A stretch of DNA of 64,000 bases, taken from an uncultured Bacillales bacterium (GTDB lineage: Bacteria; Bacillota_I; Bacilli_A; RF39; UBA660). Location: NCBI GenBank assembly GCA_946412015.1, contig CAMKGA010000006.1, forward strand, positions 127 through 64,126, written 5' to 3'. The notes beneath the pieces were generated by a model, which saw only the letters and a program-made list of their open reading frames with translations, searched no databases and was not told where the DNA came from. Position numbers and translations under genes: made by a program. Positions 1 to 16,888 of the stretch are shown here, one piece after another; positions within the stretch are counted from its first letter, which is position 1, and each line of letters opens with the position of its first letter.

Positions 1-6
1 TCGGAT

Positions 7-83
7 GTCTCAGTAGCTCAGCTGGATAGAGCATCGCCCTTCTAAGGCGAGTGTCAGGGGTTCGAATCCCTTCTGGGACACCA
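7..83 (+). tRNA. tRNA-Arg(UCU)
   Basis: Cloverleaf: acceptor GTCTCAG/CTGGGAC, D-arm TAGCTCAGCTGGATAGAGC, anticodon arm TCGCC-CTTCTAA-GGCGA, T-loop GGTTCGAATCC, encoded CCA. Confidence 0.97.
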
Positions 84-122
84 TTTTAAATATTAAGCCT
101 ATATAGGCTTTTTATTTTATAT

Positions 123-196
123 GCCCTTTTAGTTAAGTGGTATAACAAAGCCATGGTAAGGCTTAGTCATAAGTTCGATTCTTATAAAGGGCACCA
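123..196 (+). tRNA. tRNA-Thr(GGU)
   Basis: Acceptor GCCCTTT/AAAGGGC, anticodon arm AAGCC-ATGGTAA-GGCTT, T-loop GTTCGATTC, encoded CCA. Confidence 0.96.
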
Positions 197-241
197 GATT
201 AATAGGAAACTCGAACTTTTCGGGTATAATAAAAAAGCGGC

Positions 242-270
242 TTGCAAAAAAGTCGTTTTTATGTTATTAT
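242..270 (+). promoter_or_regulatory. sigma-A promoter for putative antitoxin RNA
   Basis: TTGCAA-17 nt-TATTAT with extended -10 TG. Confidence 0.7.
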
Positions 271-276
271 GAATAT

Positions 277-392
277 GTCAGAGAAATTTGCATACAATAA
301 AAAAGGAAATATACAGCTTTGGCGAGTTGAATGTCTACCTAAATAAATTTAAGCGAGACACTTATTCAAATGCGAATGAGTGTCATTTTTTT
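277..392 (+). ncRNA. putative type I antitoxin antisense RNA (~115 nt)
   Basis: Lies between the promoter at 242-270 and an intrinsic terminator (357-384 plus T7); antisense to the 3' end of the peptide gene; 5' end is estimated. Confidence 0.6.
357..392 (+). terminator. Rho-independent terminator
   Basis: GACACTTATTC-AAATGC-GAATGAGTGTC stem (one U-G pair) followed by ATTTTTTT. Confidence 0.8.
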
Positions 393-475
393 ATTACAAT
401 AATCATTATGATTAGGAGTAACAAAATGATAGAAAGATATCTAAGAACTCTTATAACAAAAATTCTCTTCTTCAT
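383..475 (-). CDS. 30-aa hydrophobic peptide, putative type I toxin (MKKRIFVIRVLRYLSIILLLLIIMIIVIKK)
   Basis: Hand-translated; GGAGG RBS upstream, own TTGTAT-17-TATAAT promoter (569-541), single TM helix with basic ends. Confidence 0.75.
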   Translation of the reverse strand: MKKRIFVIRVLRYLSIILLLLIIMIIVIKK

Positions 476-540
476 TTTTATCAAACCTCCTCTCTTTATG
501 AGATTTGGTAGACACTCAACAACTGATATTTCCTATGAAA

Positions 541-569
541 ATTATACTAAATATTTTAATATAATACAA
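541..569 (-). promoter_or_regulatory. sigma-A promoter of the peptide gene
   Basis: TTGTAT-17 nt-TATAAT on the minus strand. Confidence 0.7.
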
Positions 570-727
570 TGAGTTTGACTAAATTTTGACTATTTAGAAA
601 CACACTTGCAAATTGACATAATCAATTTGTAATTTTTAAATAAATAATATTTTATTTTTTTAAATTTTATGTTAAGATAGTTTTGTAATAAAATTAAACC
701 ATTCAGTTATTTGGACTGGGCCCTAGG

Positions 728-760
728 GATAGGTATGATCTAATCATATCTATCTTTTTG
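728..760 (+). terminator. terminator/attenuator-like hairpin just upstream of the exonuclease RBS
   Basis: GATAGGTATGA...TCATATCTATC followed by TTTTTG. Confidence 0.55.
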
Positions 761-779
761 TTTAAAGGAGGAATTATTT

Positions 780-1613
780 ATGAATAAAATTATTTTGATA
801 GATGGACATAATTTATTATTTAGAATGTTTTATGGAATACCATCACCTATAAAAAATACTAAAGGAAAAGAAATTAGAGGGTTAATTGGATTTATTGGTA
901 GTTTGAAAAAAATAGTTGATGAATTTCGACCATATTTATTAATTGTGGTTTTTGATAGTCAAACCAGTAAAGATAGTAACTTAAAAATTGATATAAATTA
1001 TAAACGAAATAGAGTCGATTATACAAATATATCAGAAGATGATAATCCCTTTTCGCAACTTCCCTTAATAAAGAAAGCTTTAGAATATTTAAACATTTAT
1101 TATTTAGAAGTTGAAAATTATGAAGCCGATGATTACATAGCTTCTATAATAAACAATAATAGAGAAAATCAATATATAATAGTATCAACAGATTCTGATT
1201 TTATACAATTAGTAGATAATAATATATTTCTATATGTTCCTAGAGGTAAAAAAAGCGTATTATATACTCCAGAAGAAGTTGTAAAAAAATATAATATACC
1301 ACCCACAAAATATGTAATATTTAAATCATTAGTTGGCGATAAAAGTGATAATATTAAAGGAGTAAAAGGAATAGGAAATATTATTGCTGCAAAGATACTA
1401 AATTATAGTTCAATACAAAATTATATATTTAATAATCCTGATTCTAGATTTGTAAAACTTCTTATTGATAATGAAGAGATAATTTTAAAAAATCAAAAAT
1501 TAATATGTATGAGTAATAATATAGATACTTCTAAAATTACTTTTAAAAAATTATCTAACAATATTTCTACTTTTAAAACCTATGAAATAATTGAAAAAAT
1601 TGGAGAAAGATAA
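780..1613 (+). CDS. stand-alone 5'-3' exonuclease / flap endonuclease (PolA N-terminal-like)
   Basis: IDGHNLLFRMFY, EADDYIAS, STDSDFIQL, GDKSDNIKGVKGIG motifs; AAGGAGG RBS. Confidence 0.9.
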   Translation: MNKIILIDGHNLLFRMFYGIPSPIKNTKGKEIRGLIGFIGSLKKIVDEFRPYLLIVVFDSQTSKDSNLKIDINYKRNRVDYTNISEDDNPFSQLPLIKKALEYLNIYYLEVENYEADDYIASIINNNRENQYIIVSTDSDFIQLVDNNIFLYVPRGKKSVLYTPEEVVKKYNIPPTKYVIFKSLVGDKSDNIKGVKGIGNIIAAKILNYSSIQNYIFNNPDSRFVKLLIDNEEIILKNQKLICMSNNIDTSKITFKKLSNNISTFKTYEIIEKIGER

Positions 1614-1667
1614 AAGTTGTCGTACTTCTTCCTTTAGGGCACCATAGGAAAATCCGCTCAAACTTTT
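1614..1667 (+). mobile_element. att-like junction duplicating the tRNA-Thr 3' end
   Basis: AGGGCACCA (1636-1644) identical to tRNA-Thr 188-196; CTCAAACTTTT (1657-1667) matches CTCGAACTTTT (210-220) at nearly the same spacing. Confidence 0.55.
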
Positions 1668-1703
1668 TATAGTTTCGAGAATAAATAGACAATCAATTCT
1701 AAA

Positions 1704-3179
1704 TTAGGATTGATTTTTTTCTAAACAAGAAACTTTTTCATCAGTTATAAAAGTTTTTCTTCCTGTATAGAATTTTTTATATGAAGATTTATCTTTTACA
1801 GAAATCCATCTTTTTTTAAATATTTCTTTTTCTTCTTCATTATCAAATAATAAGTTAAGTAATAAATTTAACTTTTCTTCTTCTGAAACATTATCATTTA
1901 AAAATTCAGTAAAATATTGTTGCTTTGTTTTAGAATTATTAGCTAATTCTAAACTTGTTTGAAACAACTTACTAATTAATAGGATATTTTGCATAATTAT
2001 TTCAAAATCTAATGAACTATTAAATAATCTAAATTCTATTCTTCCTTTGTCATTTTTATGCCAAGTCATATGATTAAAATTCACACTTGTATATCTAATA
2101 CTCGTATCATCGTCTGATTTCTCTTCCAAGTATTTTTTGAATATAACATATTTTTCTTCTTCTGTGTTAGCATGCATCAATTCAAATTCTAAATCTCCAT
2201 GTGAAAAACCAAATAAATCATTTAATCTTTCTCTTAATTGAATATTATACATAAATCTAGTAAAATCTTCTTCATTATTCAGTACAATTCTATTATTTTC
2301 TTCGAATGTTTTTTGAATATTTGCTTTGATTGGATTAGACATAGTGTTGGCACAAACTCTTATTTCATCATTTTCTTTATTTGAAATTTTAAAAAATAAT
2401 TCTTCACATTCACTCCATATTATTAACAAATATTTAAGCGCATCAATATTTCCATTAAAATAATCAACACCAATATTTATATGTAATCCTGTTCCACCAT
2501 GAATTTGTGCACCTAACACTTTAAATATCATACAAATAGCTTTTATTTGATTTAAATTGTCTAATGTGTTTGTCATAATAGGTGAAGATGCCTCTGGTAG
2601 ATCATCATCAGTCTCTTTGGAGAAAATCCATTTACTAAATTCATTTTCTTTTTCAAAATCAGAATTATTTGTTATTTTGCTAATTAAATAAATTGGAATC
2701 GATAAAGATTTCATAATAGTAGTTAATGTTTTTGTTTCAAAAATTTTTTGTATTTCTGTAAATGAAACTTTGCAATATTCTAATTCTATGCCAAATTTTA
2801 AATTAGTAGGAATATTTAATGTTTGTAAATTTTCATCAAAAGTATAATTGGAAAATAATTGTTTAAATATTATAATCTTATCTTTTTCTTCTAAGTTATC
2901 TATAGATAATATTATTGAATTTCAATTATAACAATAGTCTCTATATAAATTATCTTTATAATAGAATTTTTTAATCAATTCTATTTTTATATTTAAATCA
3001 TTAATTGTTTTTATTGCAAGTAATTTAAATTTATTCACTAAATCGTAAAGATGTACTTGTTGTAAGTACCAAATAATATAATCTAATTTTTCATAAATTT
3101 CCTCATCAGAATAATTTTCTATGGAATCTATGAATTTACATATATCATCATATTCCATTCTACTTTTATTTTCTCCCAT
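1704..3179 (-). pseudogene. amidoligase-family (COOH-NH2 ligase type 2) gene with one in-frame TGA at 2922-2924
   Basis: ORFs 2922-3179 and 1704-2714 are in the same frame; the 69 codons between them are open and encode the FGIELEY motif; GLHINIG, RYTSVNF and RIEFRLFN motifs lie downstream. Confidence 0.75.
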
Positions 3180-3399
3180 AATAACCCCAAAAAATATGTA
3201 TTATATTATAACACAAATTTTATTTTTACAAAAATAATTTAGTAAAATTATCAAAAGTCATGATATAATGGTTGTAGAATTAAATTGTTTATTTATTTGT
3301 TGTGATGGTTTCGGGCTATCTTAACTATCGCACCATGAAATAATAAAAAATCAATTCTTCAACAGGAATTGATTTTATTTTAAGAAAAAGGATTATAAT

Positions 3400-3946
3400 T
3401 TAATCATGTCCTTTTATTTCAAATTCATCGGTAAACTTATATGTATCTTCAAAATCTCTTAAAGAAATTCCATACATATCATCTACATTTGTTATATTTA
3501 TATATCCACCTTTAGCAATTTCCATATCAGATCCCCATTGATTTAAAATAATATCTTCGTTTATTTGAACGAATATTTGAACACCGCCTTTTAGATGGTA
3601 TAAAGATGGATTTTGTACATCGACCTCATATTTTTTTTCTAAATGTAGAATCATCAATAATCCATTGATTTTTATGATTGTTATTATTTACCATTACTTC
3701 ATTATTCTCATCTACTTTAGTTGCAATCCAGCCAGGTTGATTAGTTTTTTCATCCAACTTTACTTGAGCAACTTTTTCCTTTACTTCATTGCCTTCTTTA
3801 TCGACACTATAAGATATAACAGTTTCTCCTACGTTTCCTTGCCTTGCAATAATTCTTGCAAACTTTTCTGCCTTTCTTGGAATTAGTGTACCATTTTCCA
3901 GCCCTTCTTTAACATAACTTGCAACTTCCACTTTTTTATAGCTCAT
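3400..3946 (-). pseudogene. hypothetical protein (PGDYG-like tandem domain) split by a frameshift in an A8 tract
   Basis: ORFs 3626-3946 and 3400-3657 join as ...STFRKK-YEVD if one A is removed from the A8 run (T8 at 3631-3638 on +). Confidence 0.65.
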
Positions 3947-3956
3947 TATATCATAT

Positions 3957-5357
3957 TTATTTACTTACTCCATTTTTCTTTGTTTGATTTAATAATAAAT
4001 CTTTATTTTTATTAGAAAATAAATAATTATTATCTATAAACATTAAACTTTTTAAAGATAACTCTTTTAAACCAGTATTAAAAAATAAAAAACAATTTCC
4101 TATACTTTTTACATTATCTAATGTTAATCTTTTTATATGTCTACCACTTATTAAAAAAGCATTTCCAATTTTTTCAAGATTATCTGCCTCAAATAAAGAT
4201 ATATCTTCACTACAAGCTAAACAATTATCTCCTATCGTTAATACATTAGCAAGTTGTACTTTTTTTACAAATAAACATTTATGCATAAAATTATTACCTA
4301 TATTTTCTAAAAAAGCATTGTTATATTCAATAATATTATTATTTTTATTAAGTTTAATTATTATTTTTTTATTATTCTTACAAGTAATATTTAAAGTTAA
4401 TATGCCACTTTTTTTATTTCTAGTAGATTCTATTTTTTCTATATCAGTTAATCCATCAATAAAACTATCAGAGATATTTTTATCATACAAAACTATCTTA
4501 TGATGCATTAAATCTACTATAAAATAATCCGCAATAATATATTTTTCCAAATGCAAATATTCTTCCTGTAGTTTACCATTATCAATAACTATATTATTTG
4601 GTCCATAAAAAGTATTATTAATAATATAAAATATTTTATAATATTTCCCATTTTCATCTTTTTGATAACCATCTAATTCAAAGTTCATATTATTAGTTAA
4701 TTCAAGATTATAATGATACATTTTATAAAAGCTATATGTTAATCCTGGAATTATATTATCTAAATTATTACAAAATGTTGCATCAGGATTTTTTACTTTG
4801 TGATTATATCTATTTTTTATTGAAACACCATTATAATCCCCTTTAGTAAACTGAATACTAATAACAGATACTCCATAATCATCTTGTCTAAATGGATATT
4901 TATAATCCTCTCTTTTTATATCATTAACATCCTTCTTAACAGCAAAAAAAACATGACAATCTTTTAATCTATCCTCTTTAAAAGTACATAACTCCTCACC
5001 TTTTTTATAATACTTTTTAAAAAAATTTATTTCTCTTTCGCATCTACATTCGTATAAAATATATCCTGCTTCATCCATTAATTCGAAAGGCGTCTTATCT
5101 GTTTTTAACAATTCTTTTTTTTCATTAAATAAACTATAAATATATTTTTCAAAATCATATATTTTATCATTTTTTACAAGATCAGCATAAAGAGCTTTAG
5201 ATGGATAGAAATTATCTTCCAACAATTTTGGCAACCTATTAGGATATTCTAATATTGTTGAAAATATTTTCTTACATAAATGCATCATTTCTTCACCATA
5301 TTTATTTTTTATTTTTTTTAAATCATTATCCATAATATCACAATATAATTTTATCAT
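3957..5357 (-). CDS. hypothetical protein with C-terminal BspA-like leucine-rich repeats
   Basis: Repeated LxxIGNxFL / L.L.NVxxIG units at the C-terminus; probable start near 5333. Confidence 0.6.
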   Translation of the reverse strand: MIKLYCDIMDNDLKKIKNKYGEEMMHLCKKIFSTILEYPNRLPKLLEDNFYPSKALYADLVKNDKIYDFEKYIYSLFNEKKELLKTDKTPFELMDEAGYILYECRCEREINFFKKYYKKGEELCTFKEDRLKDCHVFFAVKKDVNDIKREDYKYPFRQDDYGVSVISIQFTKGDYNGVSIKNRYNHKVKNPDATFCNNLDNIIPGLTYSFYKMYHYNLELTNNMNFELDGYQKDENGKYYKIFYIINNTFYGPNNIVIDNGKLQEEYLHLEKYIIADYFIVDLMHHKIVLYDKNISDSFIDGLTDIEKIESTRNKKSGILTLNITCKNNKKIIIKLNKNNNIIEYNNAFLENIGNNFMHKCLFVKKVQLANVLTIGDNCLACSEDISLFEADNLEKIGNAFLISGRHIKRLTLDNVKSIGNCFLFFNTGLKELSLKSLMFIDNNYLFSNKNKDLLLNQTKKNGVSK

Positions 5358-16462: not shown

Positions 16463-16888
16463 TTAGTTATACTTTATAATTGGAATCCCTACCTCTTTTA
16501 CAAAGTCAAGTGTCAGTTCATCTTCAAAAGAACCACCACAGACTATTTTCTTTATACCTGCACTAACAAGCATTTTCGCACATATAGAACAAGGATAAGA
16601 TGTAATATATATTACCCCACCATCAAGCGATTCACCACGTCTTGCAGCTTCACTAATAATCACTTGCTCAGCACAAATATATCTACACAACTCACGTCTT
16701 TCGCCATGATGAAGATGGTATTTATCTCTAATACAACCTATTTCTGTGCAAGGTCTAATACCACCAACTTGATTGTTATATCCTTTCGCAATAATCTTAT
16801 CATCCTTAACAACAACAGCTCCTACTTTTCTTCTTAAGCATGTTGACATTTCACTCTGTCTTATTGCTTCTTCCATATATTTATCCAT
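16463..16888 (-). CDS. dCMP/cytidine deaminase family protein
   Basis: STCLRRKVGAV, GYN, CAEQ, PCSICAK zinc motifs. Confidence 0.88.
   Translation of the reverse strand: MDKYMEEAIRQSEMSTCLRRKVGAVVVKDDKIIAKGYNNQVGGIRPCTEIGCIRDKYHLHHGERRELCRYICAEQVIISEAARRGESLDGGVIYITSYPCSICAKMLVSAGIKKIVCGGSFEDELTLDFVKEVGIPIIKYN

Follow-up and report, generated by a model that had tools for sequence, protein, structure and literature searches.

A putative type I toxin-antitoxin family with an end-to-end folded toxin mRNA in uncultured gut and rumen Bacilli

The stretch of DNA analyzed here, hereafter the window, comprises 64,000 nucleotides from the genome of an uncultured Bacillales bacterium (GTDB lineage RF39, UBA660; assembly GCA_946412015.1, contig CAMKGA010000006.1, positions 127 to 64,126), and close to its first nucleotide it carries a compact locus of two convergent genes. 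On the minus strand, a promoter (541-569; TTGTAT at 569-564, a 17-nt spacer, TATAAT at 546-541) precedes a Shine-Dalgarno (SD) sequence GGAGG (490-486), located 10 nt 5' of an ATG at 475, and an open reading frame (ORF; 475-383) encoding the 30-residue peptide MKKRIFVIRVLRYLSIILLLLIIMIIVIKK followed by a TGA stop codon (385-383). The predicted mRNA is about 240 nt long (295-534, minus strand), both of its ends being predictions and the 3' end being placed at a conserved U run (303-293). On the plus strand, a promoter (242-270; TTGCAA, 17 nt, TG-extended TATTAT) and an intrinsic terminator (357-392; stem 357-384, T run 385-392, T7), which overlaps the stop codon and the Lys-Lys codons of the peptide, give a predicted antisense RNA of about 115 nt (277-392), its extent following from the positions of these two signals. 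All of these elements lie where the original prediction, which suggested a toxin-antitoxin locus of type I, had placed them, and both plus-strand signals were listed by the promoter and terminator scans. We put the probability at roughly three in four that the locus represents an undescribed family of type I toxin-antitoxin modules, in which the 3'-overlap layout of Gram-positive systems would be combined with a fold-back of the toxin mRNA like that of hok and aapA.

The minus-strand promoter was read by eye; the consensus promoter scan omits it because its -35 box fits TTGACA at only three of six places. A conspicuous feature of the predicted transcript is a long-distance interaction between its two ends, recognized by repeat search, RNA folding and covariation. 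The inverted-repeat search gave arms at 326-342 and 504-520 (17 nt, 88%), and RNAfold of the minus strand from 535 to 290 paired a 5' arm (534-507) with a 3' arm (339-304) through 28 pairs, interrupted by one 7-nt internal loop and one bulge. The minimum free energy (MFE) of this structure was -69.5 kcal/mol, against -42.4 +/- 4.1 kcal/mol for 200 shuffled sequences, none of which was as low (z = -6.59). The fold-back postulated originally is thus recovered by independent folding, and so is the detail that one pair of the core, G515-U331, is a G-U pair on the minus strand, whereas the plus strand would have C·A at this place.

The 3' arm of the fold-back is located inside the region complementary to the antisense RNA. 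The predicted antisense RNA begins with a small hairpin followed by an A-rich stretch, continues as the complement of the fold-back 3' arm and ends in the terminator, and its predicted overlap with the toxin mRNA (about 295-392) lies at the 3' ends of the two convergent RNAs. Terminator-like sites were listed at a density of 4 in 1 kb, where 0.3 were expected, and a scan-listed terminator-like hairpin at 233-260 holds the -35 box of the antisense promoter in its loop. The antisense RNA itself (277-395) folds less strikingly than the toxin mRNA (z = -2.69). A 94-codon ORF with a TTG start on the plus strand (288-572), antisense to the whole locus, was taken as a product of chance; in the paralogue it is not retained at such length.

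The locus belongs to a family of repeated units. When the organism's own genome was searched by blastn, a second copy emerged that is 66% identical, with the same order of parts and a different, 28-residue peptide, and the same search gave matches in 20 of 61 related genomes, the own genome included. A covariance model, R1, was built from 20 near-full copies (260 positions, 45 pairs). It recognizes three copies in the own genome, of which the two further ones share at most 66% nucleotide identity with the window copy and have the same parts with different peptides, and it gives matches in 31 of 51 genomes taken, one per genus, from the same family. Genomes of about 1 Mb hold up to 18 copies (G020, 18; G011, 16; G026, 14; G061, 14; G066, 12), many of them in tandem, and 11 tandem neighbor pairs were counted among the loci examined. 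Outside the family, 47 other genomes sampled from the class gave no true R1 match; the sole outside hit (G100) falls on the membrane anchor at the N-terminus of a 387-aa protein, which was dismissed as no relative. An exact-pattern scan of 185,579 species genomes yielded at least 119 stretches, and all 80 of the records listed from it are uncultured gut or rumen metagenome-assembled genomes, mostly labelled Bacilli. Other labels among the listed records are Tenericutes, Mycoplasma sp., Bacillales, Erysipelotrichaceae, Clostridia, Firmicutes, Muribaculaceae and unlabelled, and include one Firmicutes bacterium CAG:822; the GTDB genus CAG-822 is placed in the order RF39 in a chicken-gut study (PMC8035907). 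Phage and plasmid collections gave no blastn match to the locus, and a search of window positions 1-3000 against Rfam at E-values up to 10 gave two tRNAs and chance-level matches only. At the end of contig C34 of the own genome (G000; L042 1790-1861) a further promoter of the antisense type (hairpin, T run, TGnTATTAT) is found in inverted orientation, possibly from a fourth copy at which the assembly broke off; in relatives, too, contig ends are where several copies are located.

In the peptide, a basic N-terminus is followed by a hydrophobic core, predicted to contain a transmembrane stretch, and by Lys-Lys at the C-terminal end. An SD-linked ORF of 28-37 codons is present in 19 of the 20 copies extracted first, the remaining copy having a decayed 5' half, and one of 24-38 codons in 69 of 75 further full-length R1 matches among the pattern-found loci, two of the 69 looking frameshifted. 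The peptides fall into three subfamilies of 30, 29 and 24-27 residues, all with a basic N-terminus and a hydrophobic body. Ratios of non-synonymous to synonymous differences (pN/pS) of 0.43, 0.25 and 0.37 in the three subfamilies indicate purifying selection on the ORF, and within subfamilies differences are most frequent at codon position 3, followed by positions 1 and 2. The upstream signals are retained too: the TTG and the -10 box of the toxin promoter are conserved in the alignment of homologous copies, and a loose TTGnnn-16..18-TAnnnT pattern precedes the toxin ORF in 61 of 75 copies.

Searches of the peptides against Pfam and NCBIfam, at E-values up to 10, gave no meaningful match. A profile search of 1.84 billion protein representatives returned 82 matches at E<=1e-3 and none at E<=1e-10; none of the eight cluster members inspected carries a name, and the exact peptide of the window is not on record. 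With no match in Pfam, NCBIfam or Rfam and no named protein, the statement of the original prediction that it did not recognize the family stands. Several of 15 inspected profile-match sequences proved to be the same peptide continued past its TGA stop codon (...IKKW...), as if a Mycoplasma-type code had been applied; these entries (P0001, P0004, P0005, P0012, P0015) are spurious proteins of 36-139 residues. The family accounts in this way for a class of mis-called proteins in public databases.

At the 3' end of the ORF, the codons for Lys-Lys and stop (AAA AAA TGA, 383-392) are complementary to the antisense terminator, namely to its U tract and the first base of its stem, and this complementarity holds in the two larger peptide subfamilies. 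The C-terminus of the peptide and the terminator of its putative antitoxin consequently constrain each other, a constraint which the shortest subfamily escapes through an earlier end of the ORF.

Conservation extends to the RNA structure. The fold-back is present in the MFE structure of 19 of the 20 copies. Pairing of the two arms averages -33.2 kcal/mol between cognate and -26.1 kcal/mol between non-cognate arms, with z-scores of -3.0 to -9.7 against shuffles; since many of the copies are close kin, no more than 8 of 19 have the cognate arm as their best partner. In a structure-blind MAFFT alignment, 85.2% of cells can pair according to the 45-pair structure, a share that drops to 30-44% on sliding the partner by 1-3 columns, and both sides have changed in 23 of the 45 pairs, a number that none of 500 shuffles reached. 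For 91 further matches the corresponding values are 90.1% against 31-44%, with both-side changes in 36 of 45 pairs, covering the fold-back and the stop-codon hairpin; this second alignment was fitted to the covariance model and leans towards the structure, a bias that the slid controls share only partly. In the same alignment, 9 of the 10 pairs of the stop-codon/terminator hairpin have undergone compensatory changes. Conservation of ORF and pairing in homologous loci, named beforehand as the test on which the original prediction could fail, was hence observed for both.

The two helices differ in the wobble pairs that they tolerate. Cells of the fold-back core include 112 G·U against 21 A·C combinations, whereas the stop-codon hairpin, scored on the toxin strand, has 13 G·U against 37 A·C, an A·C on this strand being a G·U on the antisense strand. 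Because of these opposite biases, the fold-back belongs to the toxin strand and the stop-codon hairpin to the antisense strand. Their occurrence within one alignment is the best evidence here that both strands would yield a functional RNA.

Another view would be that the unit is a non-autonomous DNA repeat, similar to a miniature inverted-repeat transposable element, with the inverted repeat as its terminal repeat and the ORF and RNA features as incidental. Such an element would be expected from the multiple copies, their frequent position at contig ends, the inverted repeat and the link to tRNA ends described below. However, the inverted repeat is internal, set off from the ends of the conserved unit, the asymmetry between G·U and A·C reveals that defined strands are selected as RNA, purifying selection acts on the ORF, two promoters and the SD sequence are conserved, and no direct repeats flank the unit, all of which makes this explanation highly improbable.

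The antisense promoter has a fixed place in the family. The pattern TTGnnn...TGnTAnnnT is found in 68 of 75 copies and in 0 of 75 shuffled flanks (5 of 75 with a looser pattern). In the window this promoter follows a tRNA gene: tRNA-Thr(GGU) (123-196, plus strand; identified by ARAGORN and Rfam) abuts the module with its CCA end, and a conserved linker or leader (197-241, plus strand), with a small hairpin at about 209-227, runs from there into the terminator-like hairpin at 233-260. This linkage recurs, a tRNA or tmRNA gene being located within 135 nt of 33 of 116 distinct full-length copies, in 22 of the 33 at 75-80 nt, and always on the 3' side of the toxin gene and pointing in the same direction as the antisense RNA. 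It therefore had to be considered that the toxin mRNA is real and that the plus-strand RNA is not its antitoxin, the plus-strand hairpins being terminators of the upstream tRNA operons and control being exerted by the fold-back alone. The position of these 33 copies just downstream of a tRNA or tmRNA gene agrees with such an arrangement, as do the unremarkable fold of the antisense RNA (z = -2.69) and its status as a predicted transcript. It is nevertheless improbable, given that the TG-extended promoter stands between the tRNA terminator and the complementary region in those 68 copies, including the majority that has no tRNA nearby, and that the terminator at the stop codon covaries with G·U usage characteristic of the antisense strand.

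The linker of about 78 nt is itself conserved and starts right after the CCA of genes for tRNA-Thr, Arg, Leu, Ala, Met, His and Lys and for tmRNA. It includes a small hairpin and closes with a terminator-like one, in which the -35 box of the antisense promoter forms the loop. Alignment of flanks showed that 20 of 112 align to the linker of the window, 19 of these 20 directly after ...ACCA; examples besides window positions 197-270 are L040, L062, L073, L103, L104, L109, L150, L151, L159 and others. In four copies (L112, L081, L119, L117) leader and unit stand behind a bare ...GCACCA in which ARAGORN finds no tRNA, and these sequences may be displaced tRNA 3' ends. In the own genome, at about position 25006 of contig C5 (G000; L211 1150-1594), a leader of the same kind follows tRNA-Cys with a different cargo (a small ORF, by eye), and an identical copy of this arrangement, about 370 nt long (by eye), is found 8 kb away at about position 16836 (L210 1150-1520) behind a ...CTCCA remnant without a tRNA. 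This suggests a family of cassettes at tRNA ends with varied cargo; in our reading, the leader is the end of such a tRNA-end cassette family and the toxin-antitoxin unit one of its cargoes.

Extending this, a cassette family of about 0.38 kb could insert itself precisely behind the CCA of tRNA and tmRNA genes of any kind by means of its conserved hairpin leader and without a recombinase of its own, carrying the toxin-antitoxin unit as cargo; this is a tentative proposal, and we hold it to be rather less probable than not. A search for an integration scar revealed neither a second occurrence of the final 24 nt of tRNA-Thr within the window nor direct repeats on either side of the unit, and no integrase was detected among the window ORFs scanned (16 by Pfam, 10 by PHROGs). 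The earlier suggestion that the module may stabilize a tRNA-linked cassette is therefore borne out only in part: it is the module, together with a conserved linker, that is joined to tRNA 3' ends, and the suggestion finds no counterpart in an integrase or a tRNA-end repeat nearby. If the cassette proposal were true, landing would put the antitoxin promoter inside the tRNA terminator, so that the supply of antitoxin could follow tRNA transcription and hence growth rate, and the unit would be an addictive mini-cassette able to spread by itself, which has reached up to 18 copies in genomes of about 1 Mb. On the other side of the locus, positions 780-5357 encode a stand-alone 5'-3' exonuclease (780-1613), an amidoligase-like protein (1704-2714) and three ORFs without a family. 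The exonuclease has no stand-alone counterpart in seven relatives of the genus, where only the N-termini of Pol I match it at 34-39% identity, and the region may be accessory DNA beside tRNAs.

The case for a type I toxin-antitoxin module was made because the ORF, the fold-back, the stop-codon hairpin and both promoters are conserved or covary, G·U pairs are used in a strand-specific manner, the units spread in multiple and tandem copies, and a gene for RNase III is present in the own genome. Together these features point to a real family that is well supported as type I toxin-antitoxin-like, unusual both in the design of its control and in its genomic setting, with toxicity as a prediction. 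The evidence concerns coding and expression control throughout, and would also be expected of a conserved gene for a small membrane protein with a cis-antisense regulator, a regulatory or structural micro-protein that is tuned by fold-back and antisense RNA and is no toxin; the lack of a toxin family match and the existence of at least one copy with an ORF and no antisense promoter are in line with this. We consider it unlikely, though the least so of the explanations without a toxin-antitoxin pair, as copy numbers from 0 to 18 per genome, tandem arrays and a patchy presence (31 of 51 genera) fit a selfish or addictive type I system, and the peptides diverge fast yet stay hydrophobic while their mRNA is doubly locked.

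In the mechanism that we propose for the toxin-antitoxin module, the 30-residue peptide would act as a membrane-active toxin, and its mRNA would be made in a closed form with the first ~28 nt paired to the 3' untranslated end. In most copies a CCUCC located just after the 5' arm pairs with the GGAGG of the SD sequence; for the window copy, a CUCC within the ORF is predicted to take this role. The full-length mRNA would probably be stable, poorly translated and, in effect, silent. The antisense RNA of ~115 nt, transcribed from its own promoter and perfectly complementary to the 3' untranslated region (UTR) of the toxin mRNA including the 3' arm of the fold-back, would make first contact through the complementary loops of the terminator and stop-codon hairpins and might then invade the 3' UTR up to and including the fold-back arm. 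The resulting duplex of ~100 bp would be cut by RNase III, as in TxpA/RatA, and the ribosome site would stay sequestered, possibly even more tightly, as in BsrG/SR4. An additional pairing could occur within the mRNA, as the 5' arm (507-520), the two arms of the stop-codon hairpin (374-384 and 357-367) and the 3' arm (326-339) have one core sequence or its complement in common, and these cores vary together between subfamilies when the alignment is read by eye. The 5' arm could pair with the 5' arm of the hairpin and the 3' arm of the hairpin with the 3' arm of the fold-back, which may represent a co-transcriptional intermediate.

Several observations weigh against the interpretation as a toxin-antitoxin module. 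The peptide matches no known toxin family, Pfam, NCBIfam and the ESM Atlas giving no usable match. The ORF is missing in 6 of 75 full-length copies and the antisense promoter in 7 of 75; in one copy (L014, 1484-1741) an ORF with a GTG start is retained and a strong 12-bp hairpin replaces the antisense promoter. This copy may be an orphan or decaying toxin gene, but because the ORF has been kept without the promoter it is awkward if the peptide is strongly toxic. On the RNA level, the scan shows no classical terminator on the toxin strand, so the 3' end of the mRNA is uncertain, and no more than 12 of 19 copies favor the toxin strand by the MFE of the whole mRNA; as a test of strand this measure was uninformative and was replaced by the helix-wise counts of G·U and A·C. 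None of the modelled states accounts for a switching-on of translation, because the SD sequence is mostly paired in every one of them, with a mean unpaired probability of 0.16 in the full-length, 0.10 in the antisense-bound and 0.09 in the 3'-truncated mRNA; the accessibility model was accordingly dropped as a pointer to an 'on' state, having singled out none. In the window copy, moreover, antisense binding is predicted to open the SD sequence (from 0.26 to 0.54), opposite to what a BsrG/SR4-like mode would entail. In 5 of 19 modelled copies (G002a, G002b, G030a, G030b, G026a) blocking the 3' UTR lowers the predicted unpaired probability of the SD sequence from 0.11-0.27 to 0.00.

A last point against concerns the predicted start of the mRNA. 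In two studies, RNA libraries gave contigs that agree with the window without a difference at 321-480 (X1) and at 458-503 and 474-557 (X8), and the contig covering 474-557 extends 23 nt upstream of the predicted start at 534. The start may be located further upstream, or the contig may be DNA or plus-strand read-through. These contigs are assembled, unstranded and of low depth, may be DNA carry-over and are a weak hint of expression at most. They leave 103-306 and most of 681-1000 uncovered and are uninformative on the 5' part of the antisense RNA and on the neighboring gene.

Type I toxin-antitoxin families are few and lineage-bound, and most were described in cultured Proteobacteria and Firmicutes. 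The family considered here was found from sequence alone in uncultured, genome-reduced Bacilli of gut and rumen, and it would unite two principles of control that usually occur apart, a Gram-positive 3'-overlap antisense RNA and a Gram-negative-style end-to-end fold-back. With an antisense RNA aimed at an arm of the fold-back, it could be tested cleanly how pairing within one RNA competes with pairing between two, and R1, the structural model that the covariation data supply, is ready for use in annotation. How these units spread, and what they cost or bring to minimal genomes, are questions prompted by the heavy load of copies in genomes of about 1 Mb and by the fixed junction to the ends of tRNAs. 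The literature searched holds no paper on RF39 and toxin-antitoxin systems, and the family was not found described in the broader literature, in which the supplementary lists of Fozo et al. 2010 and T1TAdb, with their thousands of candidate ORFs for toxins, could hold related peptides.

Comparison with known type I systems supports the general layout, which the original prediction had likened to TxpA/RatA and BsrG/SR4 with a fold-back in the manner of hok and aapA, a description with which the present analysis agrees. Short ORFs of under ~70 codons for hydrophobic transmembrane peptides are a criterion for type I toxins and tandem duplication is a hallmark of their loci (PMC2887945); the family shows both, being lineage-specific, multicopy and often arranged in tandem. 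Gram-positive type I systems overlap at their 3' ends (PMC8594479, PMC4147584), and this applies to TxpA/RatA of B. subtilis and its homologue SprG/SprF of S. aureus, which, as is predicted for the locus described here, have convergent RNAs with a 3'-end overlap, an antisense RNA that leaves the ribosome site and start codon uncovered, and a small membrane peptide as toxin (PMC4147584, PMC8594479). The duplex of TxpA/RatA decays in an RNase III-dependent manner (PMC4147584), which would be the likely mode here as well. Unlike this system, the antisense RNA covers only the stop codon, the last codons and the 3' UTR, and the peptide has 30 residues compared with 59 in TxpA, without a sequence match in Pfam or NCBIfam at E-values up to 10 or in Rfam, the coverage of toxin families in Pfam being unchecked. 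Furthermore, a 5'-3' fold-back of ~28 bp whose 3' arm is the antisense target does not figure in the passages on txpA in PMC4147584 and PMC8594479.

BsrG/SR4, from the SPbeta prophage of B. subtilis, shares with the present locus a 3' overlap of ~100-120 nt and a ribosome site held in a stem in the free mRNA, and there antisense binding far from the start alters the structure of the 5' region (PMC4147584). The five modelled copies in which the SD sequence closes agree with this behavior, whereas the window copy is predicted to do the opposite. There is no sequence relation between the two, and in contrast to BsrG/SR4 this multicopy, tRNA-linked family resides in the chromosome and not in a prophage. 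Fst/RNA II, encoded by par of pAD1 from Enterococcus faecalis, likewise has convergent promoters, a helix that sequesters the extreme 5' end of the mRNA (5'-UH), a stem-loop that sequesters the SD sequence (5'-SL), and complementary terminator loops as the likely site of first contact (PMC7472228). The signature of the Fst/Ldr superfamily, a conserved Trp between transmembrane helix and charged C-terminus (PMC7472228), is missing in the peptides, which have no Trp column and end in KK or in no such motif, and Pfam gives no match. Moreover, the DRa/DRb direct repeats of Fst have no equivalent (0 direct-repeat families in 200-780), nor does its shared bidirectional terminator: here the terminator of the antisense RNA is located at the stop codon of the toxin, ~90 nt short of the predicted 3' end of the toxin mRNA, which, unlike that of Fst, must read through it.

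The closed form of the full-length toxin mRNA, on the other hand, recalls hok/Sok (plasmid R1) and AapA1/IsoA1 (Helicobacter pylori), whose toxin mRNAs are likewise closed by an end-to-end 5'-3' fold-back. The antisense RNAs of hok/Sok and AapA1/IsoA1 act near the 5' or translation-initiation region after trimming of the mRNA 3' end; the antisense RNA of the present family is complementary to the 3' arm of the fold-back, that is, to the other end of the mRNA. The hosts of these systems are Gram-negative, and neither Rfam nor Pfam gives a match. Long-distance 5'-3' interactions are among the descriptors of mRNA structure used in T1TAdb searches (PMC8594479). According to the same source, the antisense RNAs of hok/Sok and AapA/IsoA are fully overlapped by the toxin mRNA, whereas here the antisense RNA starts beyond the predicted end of the mRNA. 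Because the 3'-overlap layout fits while the sequence tests of every family tested and the hallmarks of Fst fail, and because the fold-back resembles that of hok and aapA1 with the antisense RNA directed at the opposite end, the locus appears to be a member of neither the Gram-positive nor the Gram-negative school, and is best seen as a probable hybrid of the two.

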